Positions 1 to 58,539 of a stretch of DNA of 64,000 nucleotides are shown one piece after another. Position 1 is the stretch's first letter, and every line of letters starts with the position of its first letter. Source of the DNA: Clostridia bacterium (GTDB taxonomy: Bacteria > Bacillota > Clostridia > Christensenellales > CAG-138); the NCBI GenBank assembly GCA_017395105.1, contig JAFPWD010000001.1, forward strand, positions 1,344 through 65,343, given 5' to 3'. Position numbers and translations under genes: made by a program. The notes under the pieces were generated by a model that saw nothing but the letters and a program-made list of their open reading frames with translations, did not search any database and was not told the origin of the DNA.

Positions 1-1507
1 CCAAGCTGCCGCTCGTTTCAAAAACGGTCTGGCCGTTCACTTTGAAGCGGAAATAATCGCTGTTCTGCTGGGAGGATACCTTGTAGGAGAAGCTGATGCG
101 CTGATATGCGCCGAGCTTGACCTTGCTTTCAAGAACTGAAGAGGAGTTGTTCACACCCGCGTTTCCACTGTAAACGGAGTTGCCGTCCACGATCCACGGA
201 TGGTTTCCGGGGGAAGTGAAGTGCAGACTCGTGTTTTCACCGTTGAGATAAACGTCGTACTTGAGAAGATCGGTAACGCAGAGCAGACCGTCGCCGCCGC
301 CAACGAGACCTTCATCCACGGATGCCGCCTTGATAACGGAAACAATGCTGTCCGGATCAATGTCGGGATAATAGCTCTTGAGCATTGCGCAGGCCGCCGA
401 AACGTGCGGGGTGGCCATGCTGGTGCCGCTGTAGGCGTGGTAGCCGCCGCCGGGAATGCAGCTGTTGATGCTCTCACCCGGAGCGGTGATATCAACGCAG
501 GGGCCGATGTTGGAGAAGTTGGACATAGTTCTGTTCTGACCGTGCGATGCAACGGTGAAGGAGCGATCGATGCAGCCGGGAACGTAGCTCATAGCGTTGC
601 CGCCGTCGTTGCCGGAAGCCACGCAGTAAACCGTGCCGGAGTCGAAGCCGGTGTTTATGACCTCGGAATAAAGGGCGAACGCATCGTCGGTCTTGGGACC
701 GCGAAGGCTCGCGTTTGCGATCTGGAAGCCGTTCAGATGGGCGTATTCAAAGCCGTTTACGATGTCGGTGGTGGTGCCGTATCCGCCCGAATCCATGACC
801 TTGATGCCTACGACCTTGACGTTCGGCAGGGTGCCGTCCACAACGGTGCCCGCAACGTGGGTGCCGTGATAGTGGTCGTCGTCGGGGTTGGAATCGCCGT
901 TTGCAAAGTCGTAGCCGATGTTCAGAACACGGCCGGAGAAGAAGGGGTGGTTTGTATCGATGCCGGTGTCGATAACGCCGACGATGATCTCGGGAAGCTC
1001 GTCCACCGTAACTCCGTCCTCAAGCAGCCATTCGTTGTAGTTGAATGCGCCAACGTGGTTCGGCCGGTAGCCCCAGGAAAGGAAGGAGTCCTCGTGCGGC
1101 TGCTGCGCAATGCTCATAATGGCATCGGGCGCGGCATACTGAACGCAGTCGAGCTTTTTGTATGCTTCGGCGGCCTTTTCGGCGGCCTCGGGGCTTGCGT
1201 ACTGGATGATATGCCAGTCGTTATAGCCGTTCACATGGTCGATCGAGCCGGTGTAATCGAGCTGCTTTGCGCTCTTAACGATGATTCGCGCATTCGCATA
1301 GGGGTCGTCCATCGCCTTGGCCCTGTTCACCTCGGGAGCGCTGCGCTTTTCCATTTCGTGCAGGCGCTCGGAAAAGTCGAGGAGCTTTTCGATGCGTGCC
1401 TCGCGGCTCTCCTCGGCGGAGGCCGAAGCGGAGAAGGCACCTGCGGGCACGAGCGCGATCAGAAGCGCGGCCGCAAGCAGCAGAGAGAGAAGCTTTTTGA
1501 AGTTCAT
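1..1507 (-). CDS. Secreted S8 (subtilisin-family) serine peptidase, 3' end runs off the window
   Basis: Absent from the ORF track because it has no stop in the window. Manual translation from ATG 1507 (GGAGG RBS): signal peptide MNFKKLLSLLLAAALLIALVPAGA; triad motifs IIVGVIDTGID, HGTHVAGT, SGTSMATPHVS; then a C-terminal module LNGENTSLHFTSPGNHPWIVDGNSVYSGNAGVNNSSS. Confidence 0.93.
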   Translation of the reverse strand, partial: MNFKKLLSLLLAAALLIALVPAGAFSASASAEESREARIEKLLDFSERLHEMEKRSAPEVNRAKAMDDPYANARIIVKSAKQLDYTGSIDHVNGYNDWHIIQYASPEAAEKAAEAYKKLDCVQYAAPDAIMSIAQQPHEDSFLSWGYRPNHVGAFNYNEWLLEDGVTVDELPEIIVGVIDTGIDTNHPFFSGRVLNIGYDFANGDSNPDDDHYHGTHVAGTVVDGTLPNVKVVGIKVMDSGGYGTTTDIVNGFEYAHLNGFQIANASLRGPKTDDAFALYSEVINTGFDSGTVYCVASGNDGGNAMSYVPGCIDRSFTVASHGQNRTMSNFSNIGPCVDITAPGESINSCIPGGGYHAYSGTSMATPHVSAACAMLKSYYPDIDPDSIVSVIKAASVDEGLVGGGDGLLCVTDLLKYDVYLNGENTSLHFTSPGNHPWIVDGNSVYSGNAGVNNSSSVLESKVKLGAYQRISFSYKVSSQQNSDYFRFKVNGQTVFETSGSL

Positions 1508-1579
1508 TTGGTTTCCTCCGATGATTTTTTATATCAAACGGCGCAGCGAAGCCGTGCCGTTTGGATAGCGGATCATTTA

Positions 1580-2812
1580 TCATTCATCGCGATCTCTTTT
1601 TTTTCTTTTGCCGACAAGCAGCACGGAGGCTGCGGCAATGGCAAGCGCAGCGGCGCTGCCGATGACCAGATACCCTATCTTCGGTGCAGCGGAGGGCTCG
1701 GCGGGCTCGAGCGTCACGATGGGTGAGGGGGAGAAGCGCGCATAGGGATCGAAGGTTGAAGCGCCGTCCGGCGTTGCCGTATCCGTGCTCGAATCGGGTG
1801 CTGCGCTGCCGTCGGGAGCGGGCGTGATCTTGCCGCCGCTCGGGGTAATGCCGATAGTTGGGAAGGGCGTAGCGCCGAAGCGCGCGAAGGGATCGATGCT
1901 TGCCGAGGGATCGGCGGAAGGTGTGTGAGCCGCCGTATTGCCGGGGGTTACGGGCGCACTCGAGGGTCTCGGAATGAGAGTTGCACCGGGTCTCGGGGTG
2001 GGGGTTACGGGCGCGCTCGTGGGTCTCGAAGTCGGAGTGGCGGGCGCAGCCGTTGTTCCGGGTCTCGGAGTGGGTGTGACGGGGGCGTTCGTGGGTCTCG
2101 GAGTCGGTGTTGCAGGCGCATTTGAAGGCCTCGGAGTGGGGGTAACGGGTGCGCTCGTGGGAGTTGGAGTGGGGGTAACGGTGGGCGTGCCCGGAGTGGA
2201 TGTCGGTCTCGGAGTGGGTGGAGGCGTGGGGCCGGATTCCGAAACGATTATCTTGCCGGATGTGACAGAGTGAGACATATTCAGCGGATCGGTTACACCG
2301 ATGGGCATATAAATGAATTCGTGAACCTTGAGAGTAAGAGGGATAACGGTGCCGTCAGGAACATCCGGATTGATGGTAAGCATTGCGCTGAAAATGACGC
2401 CGTTCGCCGTGATGGGATCGACTGGCATTATAACGCCGAGGCGGATGGAATTTGGAATCGTTGTGTGGTCGAGAAGTATGATACCGCCGAGGCTTCCTAC
2501 CTGAGTCAATACCTCTCCGTATGCTGTGCTGAGAACGGTAACGGCAGAATTGTTATAGTCGAGCCAAAGATGGAGCCCGTGAGCCTCGAAATTACCGTAA
2601 AGCGTCACGGAAATGTTCACGGTCTCACCAGGGCGCGCCGTGATTGTGGGCGCGCTGAAGTTGCCGTAGTACGGTAGAGGAGTCGACTCGGATTCGATAA
2701 TCGTCGGCACGCTGAAAGCGGCGCTTGCGCGCTCCGCCTTAAGCGGGGCGGGGGAAAAGGAAAACAGCATCAGTATTGCGGCGGCAATAAGCGCCGCGGT
2801 GATTCTTTTCAT
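1580..2812 (-). CDS. Single-cohesin surface protein with Pro/Thr-rich linker and C-terminal membrane anchor
   Basis: Signal peptide MKRITAALIAAAILM. Cohesin-like domain (~2240-2660: ARPGETVNISVTL..FEAHGLHLWLDYN..TIPNSIRLGVIMP..ANGVIF) is clearly homologous to the cohesins of 55009..58539. TPTPRP repeats, hydrophobic segment and KRKKR tail follow. Confidence 0.8.
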   Translation of the reverse strand: MKRITAALIAAAILMLFSFSPAPLKAERASAAFSVPTIIESESTPLPYYGNFSAPTITARPGETVNISVTLYGNFEAHGLHLWLDYNNSAVTVLSTAYGEVLTQVGSLGGIILLDHTTIPNSIRLGVIMPVDPITANGVIFSAMLTINPDVPDGTVIPLTLKVHEFIYMPIGVTDPLNMSHSVTSGKIIVSESGPTPPPTPRPTSTPGTPTVTPTPTPTSAPVTPTPRPSNAPATPTPRPTNAPVTPTPRPGTTAAPATPTSRPTSAPVTPTPRPGATLIPRPSSAPVTPGNTAAHTPSADPSASIDPFARFGATPFPTIGITPSGGKITPAPDGSAAPDSSTDTATPDGASTFDPYARFSPSPIVTLEPAEPSAAPKIGYLVIGSAAALAIAAASVLLVGKRKKRDRDE

Positions 2813-3034
2813 TGGAAACAGCCTTTCTTTCGTATCCGATGGAATGTGAGAGATCGATCGTTCGCGCACGGCGAGGTGCGCACGAATCAACAGAATAATT
2901 ATACATTATAGAGCTTCAAAAGGCAAATTCAAATCCACCCGAAAGATAATATATTGAGGGCGCGGAGATACGGACCGGAAATCGGTAAAGCAGCGCTTCG
3001 ATCGAGAAATCTTCAAATATATGTTCAAAAAGCA

Positions 3035-3072: not shown

Positions 3073-4476
3073 ATGGAAAAATCTCTAAATAAAGCAAAAA
3101 TCGCACCCAATATCCCAAACAAGATGGGCACGAAGCCGATAGGAAGGCTTCTTTTCGGCATGGCCGTTCCGCTCGTTATCTCCATGCTCGTTCAAGCGCT
3201 CTACAACGTTGTGGACAGCTACTTCGTTGCGCACTACAGCGACAGCGCACTCAAGGCGGTTTCGCTCGCCTATCCGATCCAAATGCTGATGATCGCCGTT
3301 TCGGTCGGCACCTCGGTGGGCATGAACTCCTATATTTCAAGAAAGCTCGGCGCGGGAGAGCACGATGCGGCGAACCGAGGCGCGGCAAACGGAATGTTTC
3401 TTCTGTTCGTGTCCTCGCTCGTTTTTGCCGTTCTCGGCTTCTTCACCCGTCCGTTCTTCAAGCTGTTTACGGACAAGAGCGATCTTTTGGAATACGGCGT
3501 TACCTATCTGCGCATCTGTATGTGGTTCTGCACCGGCGTATTTTTACAGCTTGGCTGTGAGAGGATACTTCAGTCCATGGGTAAGAACGGTCTTTCCATG
3601 ACCACTCAGCTCATCGGCGCGGTTACCAATATCATTCTCGATCCGATCCTCATCTTCGGCAAATTCGGCTTCCCCGCACTTGGCGTTGCGGGTGCGGCGT
3701 ATGCAACCGTTATCGGCCAATGGGTCGGTCTTGCCGTTGCGCTTGTGCTCGTTCTCGGCAAAAAGCACGAGGTAACGCTCAGCTTCAAGGGCTTCAAGCC
3801 CTGCGGCGAAACCGTGAAGGAGATCTACCGCGTCGGCCTTCCGAGCATACTGCTTCAGGCGATAGGCTCGGTTATGAATATCGGAATGAACACCATCTTC
3901 GCCCGCGTGCTCAATGATGACGGCGGCGTTGCGATAATGGGCGTTTATTTCAAGGTGCAGTCGCTTATCTTCATGCCGCTGTTCGGCGTAACGAACGCAA
4001 GTATGTCCATCCTTGCATACAATTTCGGCGCGAAAAACAGGCTGAGGCTCACGAAGGCTTGGCGGCTGACTCTGAGCGTTGCAATAGTTATAATGCTTAT
4101 TGGAACGATAGTTTTCCAGCTCTTCCCCGACCGCATAATCGCGCTTTTCGACAAGGACGGAAGCATAACCTCGGGCGGCACGGCGGCATTCCGCATCGTT
4201 TCGCTCTCGTTCGTGCTCGCGGCGGCTTCGATAACCAATTCCGTCACCTTCGGCGCGCTCGGCAGGGGTACGGCAAGCATGATAATGTCCCTCATTCGCC
4301 AGCTCTGCGTGCTGCTTCCCGCTGCGCTCGTGCTCGCACTCGTTTTTCGCACCGTGGAGTCTGTCTGGTGGAGCTTCCTTATCGCCGAATTCGTGGCGTT
4401 TGCATACAGCTTTATGATGCTCAGAAGGATCTGGAAGAAGGATATAGCGCATCTGCAGGACGGTGCAAGCGTGTAG
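3073..4476 (+). CDS. MATE family efflux transporter
   Basis: LYNVVDSYFVA, NIILDPILIFG, GVAGAAYATVIGQ motifs; ~12 TM segments. Confidence 0.93.
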   Translation: MEKSLNKAKIAPNIPNKMGTKPIGRLLFGMAVPLVISMLVQALYNVVDSYFVAHYSDSALKAVSLAYPIQMLMIAVSVGTSVGMNSYISRKLGAGEHDAANRGAANGMFLLFVSSLVFAVLGFFTRPFFKLFTDKSDLLEYGVTYLRICMWFCTGVFLQLGCERILQSMGKNGLSMTTQLIGAVTNIILDPILIFGKFGFPALGVAGAAYATVIGQWVGLAVALVLVLGKKHEVTLSFKGFKPCGETVKEIYRVGLPSILLQAIGSVMNIGMNTIFARVLNDDGGVAIMGVYFKVQSLIFMPLFGVTNASMSILAYNFGAKNRLRLTKAWRLTLSVAIVIMLIGTIVFQLFPDRIIALFDKDGSITSGGTAAFRIVSLSFVLAAASITNSVTFGALGRGTASMIMSLIRQLCVLLPAALVLALVFRTVESVWWSFLIAEFVAFAYSFMMLRRIWKKDIAHLQDGASV

Positions 4477-4521: not shown

Positions 4522-5736
4522 ATGATTCCTTTGAGCTTTAGCGAAATTAAGAAAAAATACAAGAACATTTGCTTTTTAAGCTTCGATCCTCAGTATCAAA
4601 AGCAAATCGATATGCTGCTGCTGTTCTTTTCAGCAGCCGGCTTCAACGCATTCATTGCGGCGGATTTTGACGGACTGATGGGCAAATATTTTAATTACAG
4701 GCTGAGCTATGGCGATCCTACTAACCCAAAGATCGAGCTGCGCGAGGATCTTATGCGCCATAAAGCTCTCTTAAAGGAGAAGGGAGTTCCGATAGAGGAA
4801 ACAGACGAAAGCGACACTCTGTTTGTGCTGTTGAACAGCATAAGACTTCATTCTATCAATGAGGAAGTACAGATCAGCCTTTGGAAGCTGGGCTTGGAAA
4901 AAGAATGTGCTTTTTATGATTTGAAAAGAAGGTGCTTCTATAAATGCTCCGGACCTGTTCTATCCAATGTGGAATACCATGTTGCGTGGCATTGCAATCT
5001 TAAATGCAAAGGCTGTTCCCATTACAGCAATCTTATCTCCGAGCCGTTATTCGGAACTATCGATTCTTTTACTCAAATATTGATGCGGCTTCGCGAGCTG
5101 TTCGACGATATACTGATCATTAATCTGGTCGGCGGTGAACCGCTTTTGAACAAGGACGTCGGCAGCTTTGTTCTTGTATCGAGAGAGCATTTCCCGAAAG
5201 CAGAGATCAGATTGTTCACAAACGGACTTCTGATCCCTCGGCTCGACGAACAGACGCTTGCCGTTTTCCGCGAAAGCAAAGTCAATGTAAGCATCACAAA
5301 CTATCCGCCTACGAACGCCATTAAGGCGCGGATCAAAAAGGTCCTGTCCGAGCATGGAATTGCTCATATATTCAACAGAAACGTGAGTACTTTTGATTAC
5401 GTTATCGGCGAAACCGAGCGCGATGCTGAGCGGAACTTCAAAAACTGCAGCCAGAAGCTCAATCATCTTAACGACGATGGCAGATTGAGCGTTTGCGGTC
5501 AGCCCTTGTTCTACGATACCATCAAGCATAAGCTTGAGGCGAAGCGCGAGTTATCCGATAGGGATTGGATCGATATTTACAAGGAAGCGAACGGATACGA
5601 GGTGTTGAGCAAGCTGCATACTCCCATACCGTATTGCAAATACTGCAACGAGACAAACAAAGTTTACTTCCAATGGGAGGCTCCATACACTAAGGAGCTT
5701 CACGAGGACGATCCCTGCCTGATTCGGGTGAAGTAA
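4522..5736 (+). CDS. Radical SAM protein
   Basis: CNLKCKGC (CxxxCxxC), LVGGEPLL, FTNG, C-terminal CKYC. Confidence 0.88.
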   Translation: MIPLSFSEIKKKYKNICFLSFDPQYQKQIDMLLLFFSAAGFNAFIAADFDGLMGKYFNYRLSYGDPTNPKIELREDLMRHKALLKEKGVPIEETDESDTLFVLLNSIRLHSINEEVQISLWKLGLEKECAFYDLKRRCFYKCSGPVLSNVEYHVAWHCNLKCKGCSHYSNLISEPLFGTIDSFTQILMRLRELFDDILIINLVGGEPLLNKDVGSFVLVSREHFPKAEIRLFTNGLLIPRLDEQTLAVFRESKVNVSITNYPPTNAIKARIKKVLSEHGIAHIFNRNVSTFDYVIGETERDAERNFKNCSQKLNHLNDDGRLSVCGQPLFYDTIKHKLEAKRELSDRDWIDIYKEANGYEVLSKLHTPIPYCKYCNETNKVYFQWEAPYTKELHEDDPCLIRVK

Positions 5737-14173: not shown

Positions 14174-17100
14174 ATGCAGGCAATAAAGAACGGCTTGAAA
14201 ACGATTATCCGCACGCCCGGCACTTCGCTGCTGTTCGTGCTGATAATGAGCGTGCTTTCGGTGCTGCTCGCGGTTTCGTTCTGCGTGTTTTCCGCAGTGC
14301 GCGGCTATCTTCGCGATGCGGACGGGTATTTCCATACGGTCGCGGAGCTCGAGTTCATGGGCGAAAGCTACCCCTCGGAGGATCATTTCGAGCATGGTCT
14401 GCCCGAGGCGCTCGCTGATAACGCCGAAACGATCTCGCGGCTGCTTGCGCACGATGCGGTGATCTCCTTCAAGCCCAACGCCAACCGCGCCGCGCTCGTT
14501 CACGGCCTGCACCGCAAGGACAGCTCCGTTGCGCTGAATAAGGCGGCCGTTGCATCGTTTTACATAACGGGCTATGATGAGCAGACGGCGCTGTATACGG
14601 CCATCGTTTCAAAAACATATTATGCGCAGAAAAATTACGATGAAAAGCTTGTAAACATCAGGCTTGACGGCGAGGGCGAGCTTGAGATCAAGAAAAAATA
14701 CGTTATGAGCGGCGTTTTTTCAAACAGGCTCGGAGGAAACCTTGTCGGCTTCGCGCAGAAAGAGATCAGCTTTACGGAGAAGGGCGAAAGCTTCATCACG
14801 CCCGCTTTTGAGCTTATCGAAACGAACGAGCTGCCCGAAGATAATGCTTTCATGCGCCTTGCAAGGCGGTGGGAGCTTATAAACAACGCCTGCCGCGTAA
14901 CGGTCACAAACGCGATCGAGGACGAGCTTCCCTTCCATCAGCAGCAGCTCAAGCTCAAAAGCGGCAGATTTTTCACCGCTTCGGAGTATGAAAGCGGGGC
15001 GAAGGCAGCGATAATCAGCGATGCCGTCAGCTACGGCGCGGGCGAGCTCAAGGTGGGCGACCGCGTAAGGCTCAGCGTGTTTTCCTTCACGGGCAGCGCT
15101 GATGAGGCCGAATTCACGAGCCTTGACGAGGACGAATACGAGATAGTGGGCATCTTTGCGGAGCATCCCACCTACCCAAACCGCATCTATATTCCCGGGG
15201 AAGCGGAGCAGGCTCTTCGCTCGGTCACGGGCTCGAGCATAGGCTTCTTCAGGCTCAAAAACGACCGCGCCTCGGCATTTTTGAGGGAGGCGGAGAAGCT
15301 CGGCGAGAGCGGCTTCCGCGTTTGCGCTTACGATCAGGGCTACTCGGCGGCGACCGAACCGATGCGCGAGATGATGCTTATTTCGATCATCTTCCTTGTG
15401 GTATGCGTGCTGCTTGCCGCTGCCGCGCTGGTGCTGCAAAGCCATGTTTTCGTTTCAAAAAGGAGCGAATCGGCGCAGACCATGCTACTGCTCGGCACGT
15501 CCAAAGGGCATATACTTATTTACTTTTTGAGTGCGGCGCTGCTGATCGCCGCGCTTGCGGGCTGCATCGGCGTTTTCGTCGCGGGTCGCTTGGAGAGCCG
15601 CGTTTTCGACGTCATGCGCAGCTTTGCTTCCCAGTTTGAGCAGCAGGAAACGAAGTTTTCCGCTACGGGGCTTTCGCTCGTTCGAACGCTTGATTTCGCG
15701 CCGAAAACGGGGAAGGCGCCCTATATTGCCGCCGCGCTCGCGCTCGTGCTCGGCGCTGCGGTATCAACGCTTGCCTTCGCCCTCTCCGCCGCTCGGGACA
15801 GCGGAAAAAAGCGGAGCAAGAGCAAGAAAACGGAAAAGCTCGCTTCAGGCAGCCGCTTAAGGGGCGGCACAAGCCGCCTTTCGGGAAGGCTCAAGTATGC
15901 GCTTTTATCGCTCAGAAGAAGCCCCGCGCGAAGCCTTGCGATGCTTCTTGTGGCCTTCTTCGCCGCACTCTTCTTCTCAAGGCTGACGGCATCGCTTGCG
16001 GGCTATCGCTATCAGCTTGAGAGCTATAAGCGCGGCGCGGTGATAAAGGGCTATGCCACCGATCTGTACGGTAGAAGGCTCGAGGGCTTTTTGTTCAAGC
16101 CGATGAGCCCGTATCTGCTCGCTTCTTCGGGCGAGGTGAAGGATATGAACCTTACCATCGAGCTCGGCAACCTCAGCGTTGTCGGCGTTGCGATCACAAA
16201 GGACGGCGAGGAAAACCGCGAGCTTGCCTTCGATGAACCCAAGGATACTATGAGGCTTGAGCTTCTTCAGATCAGCATGATGGGCGATCTTAAATGGGTT
16301 GCCGCAAGCAGTGTGCAGGGCTGCCCCGCCTTCCATTTCAAGAGCGCGAAGGATATCCGCTTCCTCGAGGGGTACAGCGAGAGAAATTTCATGGTGATGA
16401 GCAACGCCTGCGCTCTTAGCGAGGATCTGATGGAGGAGCACGGCATAGAGCTGGGCGATGCGGTGATGTTCCAAGCGCTCGTGCGCGATAGCGATGGAAA
16501 GGGCGACTGGGATATCGGCAGGATAATTTTGAAGGTTATAGCCGCGTATTCCTCCAATTCAACGAAAAAAACCGTGTTTTCGCCGCTTGCCGATTGGTAC
16601 GTGATCTCTCAGTCTTACGATCCCGAGAATCCGGGGCCGAATCCCTATTATCAGTTCGATAACTATTACAGGTTTGAACCCACGCCGATCGATCCCACGG
16701 AAGCCGGCACGATGGACGAAGAGGTGCTGTGGCGGCTCGATACCTATGCCAACTCGCCGGACAGCGAGGAGATGACCTTGGCGGACGGCACGAAGGTAAC
16801 GATCTATCCCAGAAAACCGAGCTTCAGCAGCGTGCTTTTCACGGTGAAGGACAACCTGCGGCTCGATGAAGCCCGCGCAGCGCTCGAGGAGGCGGGCTAT
16901 GCCCCGGTCGGGACCTACGAGCGCACCAAGCCCTATGCGATAATCGACGACGAGATGTATCTGAACACAACGCGTTCGATGCAGCGGCAGATACAGTATG
17001 TTTCGGTGCTTTATACCGCGCTCTATGTCCTTGCGGGCGTGATCGGCGCGGCGCTGGCGTGGCTGCTGGCCGCTTCAAGAAGGAAGGAGATCGCGCTGAT

Positions 17101-17332
17101 GCGTGCGCTCGGCACGCCGAATTTCCGTATAATACTCAATTTCCTGTTTGAGCACGCGCTTTTGTGCCTCGTCGGGCTTGCGATAGGGCTTGGCGCCGTA
17201 ACGCTTATCTTCGGCTTGCAGGAGCGGTTCTGCTATATGCTGTGCATAGCGTTCTTCTCGCTCTGGTGCATAAGCACGATGCTCTGCCTGGCTTTCGGAT
17301 TGGCGAAGAAGACGCAGGGGGAAATTGAATGA
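14174..17332 (+). CDS. FtsX-like ABC transporter permease (tandem paralog 1)
   Basis: Two FtsX-type halves, GRFFT, RRKEIALMRALGT; paralog of the next gene. Confidence 0.9.
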   Translation: MQAIKNGLKTIIRTPGTSLLFVLIMSVLSVLLAVSFCVFSAVRGYLRDADGYFHTVAELEFMGESYPSEDHFEHGLPEALADNAETISRLLAHDAVISFKPNANRAALVHGLHRKDSSVALNKAAVASFYITGYDEQTALYTAIVSKTYYAQKNYDEKLVNIRLDGEGELEIKKKYVMSGVFSNRLGGNLVGFAQKEISFTEKGESFITPAFELIETNELPEDNAFMRLARRWELINNACRVTVTNAIEDELPFHQQQLKLKSGRFFTASEYESGAKAAIISDAVSYGAGELKVGDRVRLSVFSFTGSADEAEFTSLDEDEYEIVGIFAEHPTYPNRIYIPGEAEQALRSVTGSSIGFFRLKNDRASAFLREAEKLGESGFRVCAYDQGYSAATEPMREMMLISIIFLVVCVLLAAAALVLQSHVFVSKRSESAQTMLLLGTSKGHILIYFLSAALLIAALAGCIGVFVAGRLESRVFDVMRSFASQFEQQETKFSATGLSLVRTLDFAPKTGKAPYIAAALALVLGAAVSTLAFALSAARDSGKKRSKSKKTEKLASGSRLRGGTSRLSGRLKYALLSLRRSPARSLAMLLVAFFAALFFSRLTASLAGYRYQLESYKRGAVIKGYATDLYGRRLEGFLFKPMSPYLLASSGEVKDMNLTIELGNLSVVGVAITKDGEENRELAFDEPKDTMRLELLQISMMGDLKWVAASSVQGCPAFHFKSAKDIRFLEGYSERNFMVMSNACALSEDLMEEHGIELGDAVMFQALVRDSDGKGDWDIGRIILKVIAAYSSNSTKKTVFSPLADWYVISQSYDPENPGPNPYYQFDNYYRFEPTPIDPTEAGTMDEEVLWRLDTYANSPDSEEMTLADGTKVTIYPRKPSFSSVLFTVKDNLRLDEARAALEEAGYAPVGTYERTKPYAIIDDEMYLNTTRSMQRQIQYVSVLYTALYVLAGVIGAALAWLLAASRRKEIALMRALGTPNFRIILNFLFEHALLCLVGLAIGLGAVTLIFGLQERFCYMLCIAFFSLWCISTMLCLAFGLAKKTQGEIE

Positions 17333-17575: not shown

Positions 17576-20500
17576 ATGCAGGCAATAAAAAACGGTATAA
17601 AGTGTACGCTCAGAACGCCCGGCAAGGCGATTCTGTTCACACTTATCCTCGCGGTGCTCGCGGCGCTGCTTGCGGTCGCGTTCTGCGTTTTCTCCGCCGT
17701 GCGCGGCTATCTAAAAGAGGCGGACGAATACTTCCACACCATCGCCACGATCGACTACGTGGGCAAGGACTACCCCGATCAGTCGGTCTACGATCCCGAG
17801 GTGCAGGAGGCGGTGGAGGAGAGCTTGGGCGAGCTCGAAGCGCTGAAGGCAAACCCCTCCGTTATGGGCTTTGAGCCCGCTTCGCCCGCGCTCGGCTATA
17901 TCGAGGGTATGCACAGGATCGACAATAACGTTTTCAACGGCGGCGCCGGTGTGCTTATTGTGAACGTATACGCCTACGATCCCGGCATCGATGCGTATCA
18001 GGTGATGCTTGAAAGGTCGCTCTACGCGCGAAGGGATTATACAGGCATCCTGATGTTTCTGTCTGCGGACAGCCCGGAGATCGAAAAGGGCAAGAAGTAC
18101 CTCATCAGCGGAAGATTCGTTGCGGGCAAGGTCAGCGGCGTTTGGTTCAGCATGGAAAGCATGAGCTTCGTTGAAAACGGCGAAACCGTTACCGTGCCCG
18201 AATTTGAGCTCGTAACGAACACCGATGTGGCCGAAACGAATGCCTTTTACAGGCTCGCCAAGGTGCTTGAAAAGCAGAACGATGCCTGCCGCGTGGTCTA
18301 TACCTCCGCGATAGAGGATTATTACCCCTTCCAGCAGCAGATACTGAGCCTAAAAGACGGCAGGCTATTCACCGAGCAGGAGCAGAAAAGCGGCGCTAAG
18401 GTCTGCCTTATAATGAACGATCTGGCGGGTCGCCTCGGGCTTTCCGTGGGAGACCGTATCCCGCTTTCGGTGTGTGCATCGGATGAAAGCATCTTTGACA
18501 CCAACACGCTCTATGAAAAGGACGGGGGAGAGTACGAGGTTATCGGCATTCTGAACGAGGATATCGACTATCCCTTCTATATTTTCCTTCCTGGCGCTTC
18601 GGGAGACGGCTTCCGTGCCACGACCGGCTATAACCTCGGGCAGTTCCGCGTTGTGAACAGCCGTGCGGATGAGTTCATCACGGCAACCGAAACACTTGCG
18701 CACAATGGCTTCCGCATCACGCTCTACGACCAGGGCTATGCCGCCGCCACCGAGCCGATGCGAGAACTGATGTTCATTTCCATAATCTTCCTTGCGGTCT
18801 GCGTGGTGCTTGCGATAGTTGCGCTGATCCTTCAGAGCCATATCTTCGTTTCAAGGCAGAAGGAAGCGGCAAACACGATGTATTCGCTCGGAAGCTCCCG
18901 TGCGCATATTGTGGCTTACTTCATTTCGGCCGTGCTTATCCTAACCATCCTTGGAGCGGTCATCGGTATGTTCGCCGCAAAGGCGATCGAGGGGCGCGTT
19001 TTTGAAACGATGCAGCGATTTGCAACGCAGTTTGCAAAGGAAAACACCGATTATTCGCTCAGCAGCACTTCCATAACGCGAACGCTCGATTTCGCGCCGA
19101 ACGCGGGCTATTTCCCCTACATCGCGGCGGGCGCGGCGCTGGTTCTCGGCGCGCTTATCACAACGCTGATCTTTGCAAGGCGCACCGTGACCGAAAGGCG
19201 CAAACAGGAGCGCGGCAGGATAAATGAGCAGGGCGGCAGCGTCAGCAGATTCTCCGTTAAATACGCGCTTTTATCCATAGTAAGAAGCCCCGTTCGCACG
19301 CTCGCCGTGCTGCTTCTGGCGGCGGTTGCAGCGCTGTTTTTCTCGCGGCTGACCGCATCGCTTCGCGGCTACAACGATCAGCTTGAAAGCTATAAGCGCA
19401 GCGCTGAGATAACCGGCTACGCCACCGATATGAAGGGGCGCTGGATGGACGGGTTGAGCATAAAACCCGATGCCGTCAAGGCGCTTATGGAGAAGGAGCT
19501 TGTACAGGACTATAACATCACAACGCGGCTCGGCTATCTCGATATCCTCGGCGTTGGAAGAACTGCGAGCGGCGCCAGTCGAGCGGTGCAGTTCAACGAG
19601 CCGCAATCCGAATTTGCGGTGGAAACGCGCGTTTACAATATCAGCCGCGCTATGAGGTGGGTGTCCACCACGGATGTGGAATCGAGCCCCGCATTCAAAT
19701 ACGCAAAGGCCAAAAGCATAACCTGGCTCGAGGGCTTCGATAAAAAGGATTTTTGGTTCCCGAACCCAGTTTGCGCACTGCCCGAAAGCGTTATGAAGGA
19801 GAAGGGCATAGAGCTTGGCGACTGCGTTGTTTTTGAACACACCTTTGAGATCGCGAACTGGAATTATCTCGGAACGATCATGCTCAAGGTGGTTGCAAGC
19901 TACTCCGCAACGACCTCTTCAAACACGGTGTTTGTGCCGTTTTCGGAGTATCCGCTTGCTTCAACGGAATACGGTCGGGAGAGCTATCATTATGATTATT
20001 ATGAGAAGGAATACAAGGAGATTTTTGCTCCGATCCTTGCCGATACGCTCGATGAGCGCATCGTGGACCGCATTATGAACGGCATTGAGACGAGCGGGTA
20101 TAACGATTGGTTCAGAAATCTCAGCTGGTACAAGGGTATCAGCTTCAAGAGCTTCCTGTTTACCCTCAAGGACGCGACGAGGCTCGATGAGCTGCGCGAG
20201 GCGTTCAAGGAGGCGGGCTACGGCACAGTCGGCAATATGAGCGACCGCGGCAAAACCTTCTTTGTGATCGAGGACGAGATGTATCTTAGCACCGTGCGCT
20301 CGATGCAGCGGCAGATACAGTATGTTTCAACGCTCTATGCCGCGCTGTACGTGATAGCGGGCGTTATCGGCTTTGCGCTGGCATGGCTGCTGACGGTTTC
20401 AAGAAGGAAGGAGATCGCGCTTATGCGCGCGCTCGGAACGCCGAATTTCCGCATTATCCTCAACTTCCTGTTTGAACACGCGCTATTGTGCCTTGCGGGT

Positions 20501-20665
20501 CTCGGCATCGGGCTTGGGATCGCAATACTGATCTTCGGCGCACAGGAGAAGATCTGCTTCATGCTCTCGGGCGCGTTCTTCATCCTCTGGTGCATATCCA
20601 CGCTTATCTGCCTTGTTTTCGGACTGGCGAAGAAGGCGCAGGCGGCGCTGGTGGAGGTGGAGTAG
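17576..20665 (+). CDS. FtsX-like ABC transporter permease (tandem paralog 2)
   Basis: Same architecture as 14174; shared YDQGY.AATEPMRE and SMQRQIQYVS motifs. Confidence 0.9.
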   Translation: MQAIKNGIKCTLRTPGKAILFTLILAVLAALLAVAFCVFSAVRGYLKEADEYFHTIATIDYVGKDYPDQSVYDPEVQEAVEESLGELEALKANPSVMGFEPASPALGYIEGMHRIDNNVFNGGAGVLIVNVYAYDPGIDAYQVMLERSLYARRDYTGILMFLSADSPEIEKGKKYLISGRFVAGKVSGVWFSMESMSFVENGETVTVPEFELVTNTDVAETNAFYRLAKVLEKQNDACRVVYTSAIEDYYPFQQQILSLKDGRLFTEQEQKSGAKVCLIMNDLAGRLGLSVGDRIPLSVCASDESIFDTNTLYEKDGGEYEVIGILNEDIDYPFYIFLPGASGDGFRATTGYNLGQFRVVNSRADEFITATETLAHNGFRITLYDQGYAAATEPMRELMFISIIFLAVCVVLAIVALILQSHIFVSRQKEAANTMYSLGSSRAHIVAYFISAVLILTILGAVIGMFAAKAIEGRVFETMQRFATQFAKENTDYSLSSTSITRTLDFAPNAGYFPYIAAGAALVLGALITTLIFARRTVTERRKQERGRINEQGGSVSRFSVKYALLSIVRSPVRTLAVLLLAAVAALFFSRLTASLRGYNDQLESYKRSAEITGYATDMKGRWMDGLSIKPDAVKALMEKELVQDYNITTRLGYLDILGVGRTASGASRAVQFNEPQSEFAVETRVYNISRAMRWVSTTDVESSPAFKYAKAKSITWLEGFDKKDFWFPNPVCALPESVMKEKGIELGDCVVFEHTFEIANWNYLGTIMLKVVASYSATTSSNTVFVPFSEYPLASTEYGRESYHYDYYEKEYKEIFAPILADTLDERIVDRIMNGIETSGYNDWFRNLSWYKGISFKSFLFTLKDATRLDELREAFKEAGYGTVGNMSDRGKTFFVIEDEMYLSTVRSMQRQIQYVSTLYAALYVIAGVIGFALAWLLTVSRRKEIALMRALGTPNFRIILNFLFEHALLCLAGLGIGLGIAILIFGAQEKICFMLSGAFFILWCISTLICLVFGLAKKAQAALVEVE

Positions 20666-42585: not shown

Positions 42586-42601
42586 TAAAGGAGCAGCGAA
42601 T

Positions 42602-46936: not shown

Positions 46937-47099
46937 TTACATTTTCGGCAACATTCTGATATAATAGTGATACGCATTATGGAATGGCTTTTCCCGTGCG
47001 CAGAATTCATCGAAGCTATAACTGCGGCCCACGGTTCCGGGCTTCCGGGCTTAGAGCCGGACGCGGTTTTAGACTTAAAAAAATCTTTGGAAGGAGATT
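46937..47099 (+). promoter_or_regulatory. sigmaA promoter and structured leader shared with the scaffoldin gene
   Basis: TTACAT-17-TATAAT (TG extended); CGAAGCTA, hairpin, TTAGACTT(A7)TCTTTGGAAGGAGATT. Confidence 0.7.
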
Positions 47100-47104
47100 C
47101 ACAC

Positions 47105-54544: not shown

Positions 54545-54821
54545 TGTCGCTATAGCCGAAACGAGGCGGAGCGGCGCGCCGAGCGCCGCATATCTCAATT
54601 GAAGAAACACATACCGCCTGAAGAAAAACAGCCTGCCGCCGATGCTCGGAAGAGATCGGCGGCTTTTTGCTTTATCCGTATGGAAAAAGGGGCAAATCGA
54701 GCCGAAAACGGGCGGAAATGGCAGCGGCGGAGCCCTGCGTGAAAAATTCTTTAATATAATAACAATTGTGCATACTCGGCGAATTGGTAAAAATTTTTTA
54801 TCCCAAAAGCCGAAAAAACGA

Positions 54822-55003
54822 TTGCAAAATTGACGGCTTTCTGATATACTGCTATCGTATGGATATGTGCGTTCCGAGCAATAACGAAGAAAGCGCGTTC
54901 CGTGCAAAATCAATCCGAAGCTACTGCCGGCTTTGCCGGCTTCATCCGAGGGTGAAGCTTGTAAAGCCGAGCATTAGACTTAAAAAATCTTTGGAAGGAG
55001 ATT
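54822..55003 (+). promoter_or_regulatory. sigmaA promoter and structured leader of the scaffoldin gene
   Basis: TTGCAA-17-TATACT (TG extended); CGAAGCTA, long hairpin, TTAGACTT(A6)TCTTTGGAAGGAGATT. Confidence 0.7.
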
Positions 55004-55008
55004 TACGC

Positions 55009-58000
55009 ATGAAGAAATTTTTTGCAATGGTAGTTGCGGTAGCGATGGTTCTTTCCCTCGCTCTTCCCGCATTCGCCATGACGCAAACCTTGCCCCACGG
55101 CGATGAGGGCAAGCCCGGTGCTACCCCTGCCGACGCGGTCGTCTTCTCTGCTGAAGCGCCCGAAAATGTTGAAGCAGGCGAAACCTTTGACGCTGTAGTC
55201 AGTGTCAACGGCAGCTACGAGGCCCACGGCCTGAATCTGCAGTTCAACTACGACCCCGAGGTGTTTGAAGTAGTCAGCACCACCAACGGTCCCGTTATGG
55301 CTCAGATCCAGAGCCTCGGCGGCTTTGGTCTTCTCGACTACACCACCGTTCCCGGCTCCGTGCGCTACGGCGTTATGATGCCCACGAACGGCTTCACCGA
55401 GCAGGGTGTCATCTTCACCGTCACCTTCCGCGTTCTTGCAGGCGCGGCCGACGGCAACTATGACCTTGAGGTTCTTGTTCTCGAGTTCTTCAACATGCCC
55501 ATCGGCGGCAGCAACACTCCGATCGAGCATACCGATAACGGCGTTACCGTTACCGTAGGCAATCCCGCTGAGGAAACCCCCACTCCGGCTCCCGCGACCG
55601 CGACTCCGGTTCCCGCGACTCCTACCCCGGCTCCCGCAACCGCGACTCCGGCTCCCACCGCGCCTCCGGCTCCCGGCGTTATTTGGGACTTTGAACAGGA
55701 TCCCATCGCGCAGGGCTTCACCTTCCGCGATCAGGACGGCGATGGCAACAACTGGTACTGGCACATGAATACCGGTATGGGCAACTACAGCGCTCACAGC
55801 GGCGATGGTGTTGCTGCATCCGATTCCTATGACAACGACAGCAGCATGGCCCTCACCCCCAACAACTGGATGCTCACTCCCGCGTTCACCGGCAGCTCCA
55901 TCACCTTCTGGATGACTGCGCAGGATCCCAGCTACTCCAATGACTTCGTTGGCGTATATGTATCCACCGACGGCGGCAACACCTGGAGCGACGAGCTCTT
56001 CGGTCAGATGACTCCCACCGACTATCAGCAGTTCACCGTTGATCTTTCCGCTTATGCCGGTCAGACCATCAACGTTGCGTTCCGTCATTACAACTGCTCC
56101 GACATGTTCATCGCCGTTATCGATGACATCGAGGTAGCGGGCGGCAGTTCCGATCCCACCGATCCCACTCCCGTTCCCCCGACCAATCCTCCCACCAATC
56201 CTCCCGTAGATCCCACCAACCCGCCGGCAGTCGGCATCATCTGGGACTTCGAGCAGGATCCCGTTGCTCAGGGCTTCGCATTCCTCGATCAGGACGGCGA
56301 TGGCAACAACTGGGAATGGATGTATGGCGCTGAGTACAGTGATCACACCCACCACGAGGGTATCGGCTTCATGGCTTCCGAGTCCTACATCAACAATGTA
56401 GGCGCTCTGACTCCCGATAACTGGATGGTAACCCCAGAGTTCTCCGGCACCCAGCTCACCTTCTGGGCAGCAGGTCAGGATCCCTCCTGGGCAGCTGAGT
56501 ACCTTGGCGTATTCGTATCCGTCGACGGCGGCAGCACCTGGTCCAACGAGATCTTCGGCTGCACCCTCACCGGCACCGACACTCAGTACACTGTGAATCT
56601 CGCAGCTTATGCGAACGTACGCACCCCCATCAAGGTTGCTATCCGTCATTACAACGTAACCGACATGTTCCGTGCGAACGTTGACTACATCGAGGTAAAC
56701 GGCGGCGGCAGCTCCGAGCCCACCCCGGCTCCTCAGACTCCCACTCCCGCACCCGCAACTCCCACCCCCGCTCCCGTAACTCCCGTTCCCGGTGAGCCCG
56801 GCGAGGAAGTTCTCCTTGCAGGTTACTACTTCGAGAGCGGCAACGAGGGCTGGATCTTCAACGGTGTTGACAACACCAACTGGGTACATTCCAGCAACAA
56901 CCCCGGCGGCTACGACTACGCTTCGTTCGCACACGAGGGCAGCGGCTTCATCATGTCCTACTCCTTCGTTGACTATGTTGGCGCTTATCAGGCCGACAAC
57001 TGGGCGATCTCTCCCGCAGTTACCCTTCCCGCAGGCTCCGCGCGCGTAAGCTTCTATGCGACCAATGCGAACGTTGAATACCCCGAGGCATTCGATGTTT
57101 ACATCGGCACCTCCACCGACACCTCCGCAATGACTCTGCTCCAGGCAAACATCACCCCGAACAGCGGTTATGAAGATCCCTGGACTCATTACGAGATCGA
57201 CCTTTCCGATTATGTCGGTCAGACCATCTACCTTGCCTTCTACGATCATTGCTATGATATGTACGAGATCTGGGTAGACCAGGTTGAGTTCTTCGGCGCA
57301 GGCAGCGGCGATCAGCCCACCCCCGCACCCGCAACTCCCGTACCCGCAACTCCCACTCCCGAGCCCATCACCCCCGCTCCCGGTCAGGTAGTGTTCACCG
57401 TGGAAGCTCCCGAGTACGTTGAGGCAGGCGAGGAATTCGACGTTATCGTCCGCGTTGAGGGCGAGTACGAGGCTCATGGTCTCAACCTCCAGCTCAACTA
57501 CGACAATGCTAACTTCACCGTTCTTGGCACCGCCAACGGCGAGGTCATGGATCAGATGACCGCCCTCAACGGTTTCGCCCTTCTTGACTACACCACGATC
57601 CCCGGCTCCATCCGCCTCGGCGTTATGATGCCCACCGATCCCTTCACCGCGAACGGCATCATCTTCACCGCAACCTTCAAGGCGAGTGAGTCCATCGCAG
57701 ACGGTCAGTATGCCTTCGTTCCCGCTGTTGAGGAGTTCATCAACTTCCCGCTCGGCGGCGAGAATACCCCGATCGACAACATCGCTTACCCCGCTTACGT
57801 AACCGTTGGCGAGGTTGTAGAGCCCACCGAGCCTCCGGTAGAGCCCACCCAAGAACCCGTTGAGCCCACCGATGAGCCCACCAACATGGCGAGCTTCACC
57901 GTGGATCACGTAGAAGCGGTTCCCGGCGCACTGGTTCCCGTCACCGTACACGTTGAGGGCGACTACCTTGCCCACGGCCTGACCTTCTGGCTCGACTACG

Positions 58001-58539
58001 ATGCCGAGAAGCTCACCGTTGAGAGTGTTGAGAACGGCGACCTCATGAACGAGGTTCTTGACCTTGAAGGCTTCAACGTTCTCGATTATGAGACCATCGA
58101 AGGCTCCATCCGCTTCGCGGCCGTTGCTCCCATCCCCGAGCAGCCCTTCTCCACCGAAGGCACCGTATTCACCGTTTACTTCCGCGTTTCCGAGGAAGCG
58201 CAGGTTGGCGATGTTTATGAGCTCGTTGCCAACGTGACCGAGCTGGTCTACATGCCCGACTCCGAAGAGATCGCCGTTGATTGGGAATCCGAGGACGGCA
58301 GCATCACCATCATTGACGGCGAGCCCGTAGAGCCCACCGATGAGCCCGTAGAGCCCACCGACGAGCCCGTAGAGCCCACCGATGTTCCCGTAGAGCCCAC
58401 CGAGGTTCCCGGCGAGCCCACTCCCGAGCCCACCACTCCGCCCGCACCTCCCACCGGTACCATCGCTATGGTCGGTGCAGGTATCGCGGCTGTAGTTGCA
58501 GGCGCAGGCATCGTGCTCTTCAGGAAGAAGGAAGACTAA
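55009..58539 (+). CDS. Cell-wall-anchored scaffoldin-like protein: cohesin, 3 cleaved-adhesin domains, 2 cohesins, sortase-type tail
   Basis: Cohesin-like repeats (AHGL...YD...LDY.T..GS.R) at ~55138-55560, ~57388-57810, ~57889-58320; adhesin domains ~55678-57297; Pro/Thr linkers; APPTG, hydrophobic segment, RKK. Confidence 0.86.
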   Translation: MKKFFAMVVAVAMVLSLALPAFAMTQTLPHGDEGKPGATPADAVVFSAEAPENVEAGETFDAVVSVNGSYEAHGLNLQFNYDPEVFEVVSTTNGPVMAQIQSLGGFGLLDYTTVPGSVRYGVMMPTNGFTEQGVIFTVTFRVLAGAADGNYDLEVLVLEFFNMPIGGSNTPIEHTDNGVTVTVGNPAEETPTPAPATATPVPATPTPAPATATPAPTAPPAPGVIWDFEQDPIAQGFTFRDQDGDGNNWYWHMNTGMGNYSAHSGDGVAASDSYDNDSSMALTPNNWMLTPAFTGSSITFWMTAQDPSYSNDFVGVYVSTDGGNTWSDELFGQMTPTDYQQFTVDLSAYAGQTINVAFRHYNCSDMFIAVIDDIEVAGGSSDPTDPTPVPPTNPPTNPPVDPTNPPAVGIIWDFEQDPVAQGFAFLDQDGDGNNWEWMYGAEYSDHTHHEGIGFMASESYINNVGALTPDNWMVTPEFSGTQLTFWAAGQDPSWAAEYLGVFVSVDGGSTWSNEIFGCTLTGTDTQYTVNLAAYANVRTPIKVAIRHYNVTDMFRANVDYIEVNGGGSSEPTPAPQTPTPAPATPTPAPVTPVPGEPGEEVLLAGYYFESGNEGWIFNGVDNTNWVHSSNNPGGYDYASFAHEGSGFIMSYSFVDYVGAYQADNWAISPAVTLPAGSARVSFYATNANVEYPEAFDVYIGTSTDTSAMTLLQANITPNSGYEDPWTHYEIDLSDYVGQTIYLAFYDHCYDMYEIWVDQVEFFGAGSGDQPTPAPATPVPATPTPEPITPAPGQVVFTVEAPEYVEAGEEFDVIVRVEGEYEAHGLNLQLNYDNANFTVLGTANGEVMDQMTALNGFALLDYTTIPGSIRLGVMMPTDPFTANGIIFTATFKASESIADGQYAFVPAVEEFINFPLGGENTPIDNIAYPAYVTVGEVVEPTEPPVEPTQEPVEPTDEPTNMASFTVDHVEAVPGALVPVTVHVEGDYLAHGLTFWLDYDAEKLTVESVENGDLMNEVLDLEGFNVLDYETIEGSIRFAAVAPIPEQPFSTEGTVFTVYFRVSEEAQVGDVYELVANVTELVYMPDSEEIAVDWESEDGSITIIDGEPVEPTDEPVEPTDEPVEPTDVPVEPTEVPGEPTPEPTTPPAPPTGTIAMVGAGIAAVVAGAGIVLFRKKED
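58321..58401 (+). repeat. 21-bp coding tandem repeat (EPVEPTD linker)
   Basis: GAGCCCGTAGAGCCCACCGA(T/C), about 4 copies. Confidence 0.85.

Follow-up and report, generated by a model that had tools for sequence, protein, structure and literature searches.

The left end of a 64,000-nucleotide stretch of DNA from an uncultured Clostridia bacterium of the rumen or gut holds two adjoining genes on the minus strand. One encodes a cell-surface anchor with a single cohesin, and the other a serine protease of the S8 (subtilase) family that ends in a dockerin. The stretch, called the window here, is G000:C9:1344-65343, where G000 is the genome under study and C9 its contig. The protease gene runs off the window, and because of this its open reading frame (ORF) shows only when open ends are allowed. 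Contig C9 continues for 1343 bases further to the left, so that the gene cut by the edge can be read whole. In contig numbering (L001), window positions 2932..2898 are 4275..4241, and L001:232 is the same as G000:C9:232. The positions of the features are given in Table 1.

The ORF listing for the anchor gene extends to a TTG at 2890, and the ATG at 2812 is taken as the start. The second-highest hydrophobic window of the protein begins at residue 4, within the putative signal peptide. The highest value (2.49 in a Kyte-Doolittle window of 19 amino acids) is reached at residue 382, in the C-terminal helix. Between the cohesin and this helix lies a stalk of 178 residues composed of proline (26%), threonine (20%), alanine (14%) and serine (10%), with four exact copies of TPTPRP. 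An earlier, sequence-only reading of this DNA had already described a long TPTPRP stalk with a transmembrane anchor, and this agrees with the stalk at residues 201-378, the hydrophobic helix at residues 379-401 and the basic tail behind it. The sortase motif LPXTG is absent before the C-terminal helix (the protein ends ...SAAPKIGYLVIG...VGKRKKRDRDE), and the orthologues of the anchor share no common motif at this place.

The single cohesin and the membrane anchor are genuine. In a BLASTP comparison, the N-terminal module is 45% identical over 162 amino acids to cohesin 2 of the scaffoldin at 54766..58539 (E 2e-32), 43% identical to cohesin 1 (E 5e-24) and 31% identical to cohesin 3 (E 5e-23). 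The close match to cohesin 2 claimed in the sequence-only reading is correct for the pairwise comparison. It is not exclusive, since cohesins of a scaffoldin with ten cohesins on contig C43 match the module at 43-44% identity, and it does not carry over to the tree of cohesins. There, the module groups with the anchors of three related loci, L008, L009 and L010 (93/96), and not with cohesin 2.

Family models and single-sequence searches miss this cohesin. It is absent from the 14 matches of the Pfam cohesin family (PF00963) in G000, and a PDB search with the anchor sequence alone gave no match; only profile and fold searches succeeded. A profile of 18 related modules (A1) matches the solved cohesins 6kg8 (E 3.5e-8), 4ums, 4iu2 of ScaE and the NagJ cohesin. 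The homology is transitive, since the BLASTP partners of the module pass PF00963 and the 18-module profile matches solved cohesins. The AlphaFold2 (AF2) model of the module has a predicted local distance difference test score (pLDDT) of 95.4 and a predicted template modelling score (pTM) of 0.87. Its fold is the flattened beta-sandwich with jelly-roll topology that is typical of cohesins, and all PDB matches listed for it by Foldseek are cohesins (best 6kgf, E 2.4e-11, template modelling score 0.75). The module also retains H31, G52, P83 and P123, which are invariant across 18 aligned cohesins.

The gene downstream of the anchor was missed by the ORF track and had been described as a co-oriented subtilisin gene. 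The reading frame at 2..1507 on the minus strand, 72 nucleotides (nt) downstream of the anchor, bears this out, matching Peptidase_S8 with an E-value of 2e-43. The full protein of 872 amino acids consists of a signal-peptide-like start, a pro-region, the catalytic domain, three modules and a C-terminal dockerin. When it is aligned to the Vibrio proteinase 1s2n (E 5.3e-35), the DTG, HGTH and GTSMATPH motifs coincide. In addition to the family match, the protein has the Asp-His-Ser triad in subtilase order and the oxyanion Asn; judged from the alignment, the catalytic triad is intact.

The dockerin occupies residues 812-872. The sequence-only reading had predicted it at the C-terminus, outside the window, and it was found on the contig to the left. 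It is made of two calcium-loop and helix repeats, DSNNNGSVEVAD-ALLALRFAMG and DMDENGTVSVGD-AVVILRTALG. The Dockerin_1 model (PF00404) gives 21.1 bits on the full protein, just below the cut-off of 22.9, and 25.9 bits, above the cut-off, in the search of the G000 genome. The two calcium-loop and helix segments and the PF00404 match identify the C-terminus as a type I-like dockerin. It is 45-55% identical to the dockerins of three other proteins in the window. A C-terminal dockerin is likewise present in all six S8 relatives that were fetched from other public genomes (43-89% identical), the sources being sheep and rumen metagenome-assembled genomes and 'Clostridium sp. CAG:138'.

Three copies of a jelly-roll module of about 130 amino acids fill the space between the catalytic domain and the dockerin (residues 417-808, L001:427-1602). 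The window edge cuts the first copy; the other two and the dockerin are encoded further left (L001:235-1212). The module that follows the catalytic domain had been likened to the one with which the three dockerin proteins of the window begin, and the likeness is real: the copies at 47249-47653, 50465-50866 and 52295-52699 match with E-values of 5e-21 to 4e-11 and 31-47% identity. Twelve ORFs of G000 have the module, among them the two S8 proteins built in this way and the scaffoldin with ten cohesins.

An AF2 model of the module, from 24 aligned copies, reaches a pLDDT of 94.4. Its best VIA-align match is the C-terminal domain of VesC from Vibrio cholerae (6bqm; Z 15.5, root mean square deviation 2.3 A, 122/131 residues), followed by a match at 11.5. 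Foldseek gives an E-value of 4.7e-6 for VesC, at a sequence identity of 15%. Other structural matches are MAM domains, reelin repeats, carbohydrate-binding modules (CBMs) and the K1 adhesin domain of gingipain (Z 8.8). In VesC too, an accessory beta-sandwich domain comes after a secreted serine protease domain. VesC differs in having a trypsin fold and one such domain, whereas the S8 protein is a subtilase with three copies; in G000, moreover, the module also stands at the head of a scaffoldin and of dockerin proteins that are not proteases. The three MAM/VesC-like modules of the S8 protein probably bind a ligand or substrate.

Neither Pfam nor NCBIfam covers the jelly-roll module in the S8 protein, and Pfam does not cover it in six hand-picked homologues, which are shorter ones and not a random sample. 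A dockerin is found on five of these six, in one case weakly (E 0.007, below the cut-off). CBM_6 and GOLD were set aside as families for the module, their matches having E-values above 0.1. A profile of the module finds 16,073 proteins at E <=0.001 and 9,694 at 1e-10 among 1.84 billion representative proteins, with up to 33 copies per protein. The module may merit a domain family entry of its own.

Table 1. Features of the anchor-S8 region and of the scaffoldin locus, in window positions (aa, amino acids)
Feature	Positions	Strand	Details
Two overlapping sigma-70-like promoter matches, TTGAAT-16-TATAAT and TTGCCT-17-TATAAT	2898..2932	-	Consensus matches only; upstream of anchor
Anchor gene	1580..2812	-	410 aa from ATG at 2812: signal peptide, one cohesin, Pro/Thr stalk, membrane helix, basic tail
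Putative signal peptide, aa 1-26, MKRITAALIAAAILMLFSFSPAPLKA	2735..2812	-	By eye from translation
Cohesin module, aa 48-200	2213..2671	-	BLASTP, profile, AF2, Foldseek
Strain-variable cassette over cohesin	2191..2690	-	53-62% DNA identity to L009; boundaries approximate (150-bp bins)
Pro/Thr/Ala/Ser-rich stalk, aa 201-378	1679..2212	-	Composition
33-bp (11-aa) tandem repeat within stalk, 5.1 copies	1988..2161	.	Tandem Repeats Finder score 126, 68% matches
Anchor C-terminus	1583..1678	-	Kyte-Doolittle; hydrophobic helix aa 379-401 (1610..1678), basic tail KRKKRDRDE (1583..1609)
Intergenic gap, anchor stop to S8 start, 72 nt	1508..1579	-	GGAGG 8 nt ahead of S8 ATG
S8 subtilase gene, codons 1-502 of 872	1..1507	-	Gene end 1112 bases left of window, G000:C9:232
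Peptidase_S8 catalytic domain, aa 174-396	320..988	-	PF00082 E 5.6e-43 (full protein)
S8 motifs	VIDTGID 956..976; HGTHVAG 848..868; ASGNDG 602..619; GTSMATPH 404..427	-	Alignment
First jelly-roll module (about 130 aa), aa 417-547	1..259	-	Cut by window edge
Three dockerin proteins, main window locus	46967-50083, 50363-52042, 52187-54544	+	Jelly-roll, Big_2, dockerin
Scaffoldin, three cohesins and Cleaved_Adhesin modules	54766..58539	+	Ends PPTG, hydrophobic helix, RKKED

The layout of the two genes is consistent with co-transcription from the promoter matches upstream of the anchor. This promoter stretch is 99% identical in L009, the locus of the close strain genome G061 that is equivalent to the anchor-S8 region. 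No terminator-like site was found on the coding strand of the 72-nt gap. An anchor orthologue stands immediately upstream of the S8 orthologue in three of six related loci (L008, L009 and L010), and the same order is seen in the metagenome contig L075.

RNA-library contigs from four libraries in three studies cover window positions 1-1543 at 90-100% likeness. They are a weak hint that the S8 gene or near relatives of it are transcribed in animal gut and rumen samples, DNA carry-over being another possible source. On the anchor gene, a single short piece falls within the repeat (about 2127-2160); with a likeness threshold of 90% and a strain-variable cohesin, this is uninformative on anchor transcription.

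Beyond the S8 gene, L009 is colinear with the end of another contig of G000, C16. The anchor-S8 pair and six clustered dockerin genes at C16:26033-39847 are thus neighbours in convergent orientation; five of the six encode Cleaved_Adhesin proteins and one a leucine-rich repeat (LRR) protein. In G000, a multi-copy repeat lies between the pair and the cluster, with one copy 26 nt past the S8 stop, and it accounts for the break between C9 and C16. Its two ends, C9:1-205 and C16:39974-40320, match 13 other contigs and 13 contigs, respectively, at 91-99% identity and mostly at contig ends; the repeat is probably an insertion sequence. A strong hairpin after the S8 stop (L001 175..144) was rejected as the native terminator, as it lies inside this inserted repeat.

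The anchor and the protease belong to a network that extends over the whole genome. G000 has 51 Pfam dockerin matches, and an iterated hidden Markov model search gives 50 dockerin ORFs. Its 15 cohesins are found in four proteins: ten in the scaffoldin of 1892 amino acids on C43, three in the window scaffoldin, one in the anchor and one in a protein of 350 amino acids on contig C10. The assembly (1.90 Mb, 58 contigs) is 68% complete, so these counts are lower bounds. A hydrophobic helix and basic tail form the C-terminus of all four cohesin proteins, and none of the four has a dockerin; all would therefore be cell-bound primary receptors. Among the 61 genomes of the family (CAG-138 of the Christensenellales in GTDB) that were searched, G000 included, Dockerin_1 occurs in 55, with at least 13 copies in 18, and cohesins of the anchor type (profile A1, E up to 1e-5) occur in 18.

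The cargo of the dockerins was surveyed by a Pfam scan of 49 of the 50 ORFs, from which a 69-residue fragment on C12 was omitted (E cut-offs 1e-5, 0.01 and 10). Not one glycoside hydrolase was found on these 49 ORFs. They carry Peptidase_S8 (5), Redoxin/AhpC-TSA (7), LRR_4 (7), Cleaved_Adhesin (6), DUF2436 (1) and several Big_2 domains, with single instances of CHAP, Cthe_2159, CarboxypepD_reg, DUF285 and Glug. In 14 of the 49, nothing besides the dockerin, or no domain at all, was recognised. Five of the six S8 genes of G000 are dockerin-bearing. The window scaffoldin contains Cohesin, Cleaved_Adhesin and an InhA-like MAM domain, and no CBM was found on it. Its start is probably the ATG of MKKFF near 55009. 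Two of the three window dockerin proteins have Cleaved_Adhesin or DUF2436 between Big_2 and the dockerin; on the scaffoldin and dockerin proteins of the window, Cleaved_Adhesin matches with E-values of 1e-34 to 7e-47. As judged from this part of the genome, G000 has neither the glycoside hydrolase dockerins nor the CBM scaffoldin that define a cellulosome or amylosome in the strict sense.

The sequence-only reading had placed the pair in a second locus of the same system as the scaffoldin and its three dockerin proteins. This is only partly borne out: a cohesin and a dockerin related to those of the other locus are present, but the genome as a whole has four cohesin proteins and some 50 dockerin ORFs. 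The operon adjoins the C16 cluster, and a dockerin tree of low resolution separates the S8 dockerin from the three window dockerins. In that tree, which is based on 63 columns with 30 of 46 forks unresolved, only one long-branch group of five can be defined; the closest partner of the S8 dockerin there is the dockerin of the S8 paralogue on C10 (support 91), in a group of 20 members.

The arrangement of an anchor gene followed by a dockerin gene recurs in G000. On C10, a gene for an AhpC/TSA-dockerin protein comes 45 nt behind the one for the membrane-tailed protein with a single cohesin.

Most of the 50 dockerins have the motif [VI][AS]..LR...G in both halves, at positions that we take to be the cohesin-contacting ones of type-I complexes. 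The shared motif suggests, at the level of sequence, broad cross-reactivity and a dual binding mode.

Taken together, the anchor and the S8 protease probably form a cell-surface display pair within a non-cellulolytic cohesin-dockerin network, a reading to which we assign a probability of roughly 0.6. The anchor would be exported by means of its signal peptide and held by the C-terminal membrane helix, the basic tail staying in the cytoplasm. The stalk of about 180 residues, rich in proline and threonine, would carry the single cohesin outward through the wall, where it could capture secreted proteins that end in dockerins. The subtilase made from the gene 72 nt downstream would be one of these and would thereby be tethered to the cell. 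Its docking site might be this anchor or the two scaffoldins with several cohesins, and its neighbours there would be cleaved-adhesin, LRR and redoxin proteins with dockerins of the same kind. From gene order and domain content, the protease is a probable client of the anchor.

Several observations weigh against the display pair. Neither Pfam (E up to 10) nor NCBIfam finds a match on the anchor when it is searched alone. In the other three of the six related loci (L011, L012 and L013, including the Clostridium sp. CAG:138 record), the anchor is absent upstream of S8. A separate promoter for the S8 gene may lie within the 72-nt gap, in which TGATATAAA resembles an extended -10 element (seen by eye and not called by a tool). 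Dockerin-bearing glycoside hydrolases could be encoded in the part that is missing from the 68% complete genome. Finally, the comparison with the close strain G061 shows that the cohesin of the anchor and the dockerin of the protease have not changed together.

In this comparison, the flanks of the cohesin (promoter, signal peptide, stalk, helix and S8 gene) are 91-99% identical in DNA to L009, and the divergence is confined to a cassette over the cohesin, with an insertion of 19 amino acids at its start. The anchor cohesins of G000 and G061 are 43% identical in amino acids, as against 81.5-100% for the other 14 of the 15 cohesins of G000. The S8 dockerin beside the swapped cohesin is 93.5% identical. 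Across four genomes, anchor cohesins are 40-71% identical and S8 dockerins 59-89%. A strictly cognate pair is expected to change together; either the specificity of the cohesin is the same after the swap, which implies broad binding, or its real partner is a dockerin that has diverged with it.

A candidate for such a partner emerges from 25 orthologous dockerin proteins of G000 and G061 that are 90% identical or more over the 190 residues ahead of the dockerin. Of the dockerin pairs, 21 are at least 93% identical, three are 82-86% identical and one is 60.3% identical. The last is the dockerin of the Cleaved_Adhesin protein C16:36779-38119, whose counterpart in L009 lies about 2 kb beyond the S8 gene. 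It is therefore possible, if on the unlikely side, that the anchor cohesin is specific for another dockerin, with this one as the best candidate, while the protease docks on the multi-cohesin scaffoldins and its adjacency to the anchor reflects no more than a shared locus. Just one cohesin in 15 has been replaced and just one dockerin in 25 has dropped so far, the two genes are close neighbours in the colinear L009, and the S8 dockerin has stayed as it was. On the other hand, this is one coincidence between two strains, and both changes fall in one recombination-prone region. The 60% dockerin also keeps the LR/MR helix positions of its family, and the best matches to its protein in G062 and G063 are merely 54-58% identical; over G062, G063, G059 and G016 they are 38-58% identical or absent, which leaves orthology uncertain.

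An extension of this idea is that strains of one species carry alternative, matched cassettes in which the anchor cohesin and the C16:36779 dockerin (60% identical inside a protein of 93%) are swapped together. We consider it unlikely. If true, it would provide a ready-made orthogonal cohesin-dockerin pair and an instance of allelic switching of surface modules, perhaps driven by phage or host. It would also be a natural re-wiring of one lock-and-key pair within a surface 'adhesome' of proteases, adhesins and redoxins that is free of carbohydrate-active enzymes (CAZymes). The naturally swapped cohesin gives a direct handle on the evolution of specificity. The strain-specific replacement of the anchor cohesin alone, with one neighbouring dockerin diverging in parallel, is the least expected element of the locus and the most interesting one.

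The origin of the swapped module was sought as well. No donor was found in five related genomes (best match 48%) or in G000 itself (45%). A further search for alleles by means of a conserved 36-base stretch of the signal peptide found one metagenome contig, L075, which carries the L009-type allele (97.8% identical to the L009 anchor).

Such extreme divergence between strains, restricted to a module that has no Pfam cohesin match of its own, might also be expected of a fast-evolving exposed surface domain (for example a phage receptor or an immune-exposed domain) that has the cohesin fold and is no receptor for dockerins. This is highly improbable, because the module retains the residues invariant in the 18 aligned cohesins, models confidently as a cohesin, and occurs next to dockerin genes in a genome with about 50 dockerins.

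The display pair proposed for G000 resembles several known systems in part. OlpA and OlpC of Clostridium (Acetivibrio) thermocellum are type-I cohesin anchors that bind enzyme dockerins directly, without a large scaffoldin, and are bound to the wall by SLH repeats. Like the anchor, they place one cohesin on a cell-bound protein, and the structures of their cohesins in complex with dockerins, 3ul4 and 4dh2, rank high among the fold matches of the anchor cohesin. They differ from it in sequence (14-16% identity to the anchor cohesin) and in attachment, as the anchor uses a membrane helix on a Pro/Thr stalk. A further difference is the lack of glycoside hydrolase cargo among the 49 scanned dockerin ORFs of G000.

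Another monovalent anchoring cohesin of a rumen Firmicute is ScaE of Ruminococcus flavefaciens, which is sortase-linked through LPXTG and binds the X-dockerins of ScaB and CttA. Its structures 4iu2 and 2zf9 are among the fold matches of the anchor, which differs from it in having no LPXTG.

The literature contains precedents for parts of the cargo. In R. flavefaciens FD-1, 222 dockerin proteins are listed, including 16 peptidase and 28 LRR modules (PMC2930009); dockerin-borne proteases and LRR proteins are therefore already known. The paper makes no mention of subtilisin. The difference is that in FD-1 the non-CAZyme cargo sits on a cellulosome, whereas no CAZyme cargo was found in G000. A 2008 survey lists subtilases with dockerin or cleaved-adhesin domains (PMC2605481).

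Many dockerins and few cohesins are also found in R. albus, with its single cohesin, and in the amylosome of R. bromii. The single cohesin of R. albus is proposed to anchor isolated dockerin enzymes (PMC6118326), and the amylosome is a use of cohesin-dockerin pairs beyond cellulose (PMC4611034). The cargo in both species is glycoside hydrolases; that of G000 consists of proteases, adhesin-like proteins, LRR proteins and thiol-redox proteins.

The RgpA-Kgp/HagA system of Porphyromonas gingivalis resembles G000 in combining a protease with Cleaved_Adhesin and DUF2436 modules, and the S8 jelly-roll superimposes on the K1 domain at the Z of 8.8 given above. Gingipains are cysteine proteases of family C25; their adhesin domains derive from a single polyprotein, and their export is by the type IX system. 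The protease of G000 is a serine protease of family S8 in a Clostridia-type bacterium, and assembly would be by cohesin and dockerin. In G000, Cleaved_Adhesin is present in six dockerin ORFs and in the scaffoldin, and DUF2436 in one ORF. Peptidase_C25 is absent from the 49 dockerin ORFs, the search having covered these and not the whole genome. The resemblance, which the sequence-only reading had also drawn, is one of analogy and not of membership.

The analogy raises the question of what the protease cuts. As in gingipains, it could serve mainly to mature the surface complex, by trimming linkers or releasing adhesins, and not for nutrition or against a host. The long exposed linkers contain arginine (TPTPRP), five of the six S8 genes carry dockerins, and domains named from gingipains and HagA (Cleaved_Adhesin and DUF2436) sit on the scaffoldin and on six to seven dockerin proteins. 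Against this, the triple binding module of the protease itself suggests external targets, and the gingipain likeness, at the level of domain families only, comes without C25 among the scanned ORFs. Maturation as the main role is quite improbable.

The display pair would be of interest beyond this locus. Cohesin-dockerin assembly has been studied mostly as the building of cellulosomes, whereas in G000 some 50 dockerin genes and the four cohesin proteins with membrane tails serve proteases, gingipain-type adhesin modules, LRR proteins and extracellular thiol-redox proteins. The genome belongs to a rumen and gut lineage of Clostridia with small genomes, in a genus that includes 'Clostridium sp. 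CAG:138'. If the system works as proposed, it would be a proteolytic and adhesive machine of the cell surface, relevant to protein breakdown and attachment in the rumen and gut. Non-cellulosomal cohesins and dockerins have reportedly been reviewed by Peer and colleagues. In the literature searched, from which subscription journals were outside coverage, no description of a glycoside-hydrolase-free cohesin-dockerin system of the G000 kind was found, and none of dockerins in CAG-138. Of single-cell genomes of Christensenellales it is remarked that they carry 'dockerins for cellulosomes' (PMC10266427).

Some further features of the network deserve mention. The two multi-cohesin scaffoldins both end in [AT]PPTG, a hydrophobic stretch of 20 residues and R(K/R)KED (window 58440-58539 and C43). 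From its sequence, [AT]PPTG may be a sorting signal for a sortase, of the (S/P)PXTG type. G000 has one sortase gene (C45:74993-75367), and the single-cohesin anchors are without a PPTG motif.

Seven secreted Redoxin/AhpC-TSA proteins, which resemble thiol-disulfide oxidoreductases, end in dockerins. Three of their genes are in tandem on C36, and one lies directly after the second anchor gene (G000:C10:39046-41133). Extracellular redox enzymes tethered by a cohesin would be an unusual cargo. The Clostridia-type dockerin protein at 52187-54544 carries DUF2436 (E 6e-44), a family named from gingipain/HagA of Porphyromonas.

Upstream of the anchor gene, in divergent orientation, a MatE efflux protein is encoded at 3073-4476 and a radical SAM protein at 4522-5736. 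The gene of the efflux protein also adjoins the anchor in L009 and L075.

Elsewhere in the window, two adjoining genes (14174-17332 and 17576-20665) encode giant FtsX/MacB-like permeases of 1052 and 1029 amino acids with MacB periplasmic core domains. A CitX-CitG fusion, for the synthesis of the holo-acyl carrier protein of apo-citrate lyase, is encoded at 44389-45882, and before it, at 42566-44287, a protein with TPR and RCC1 repeats.

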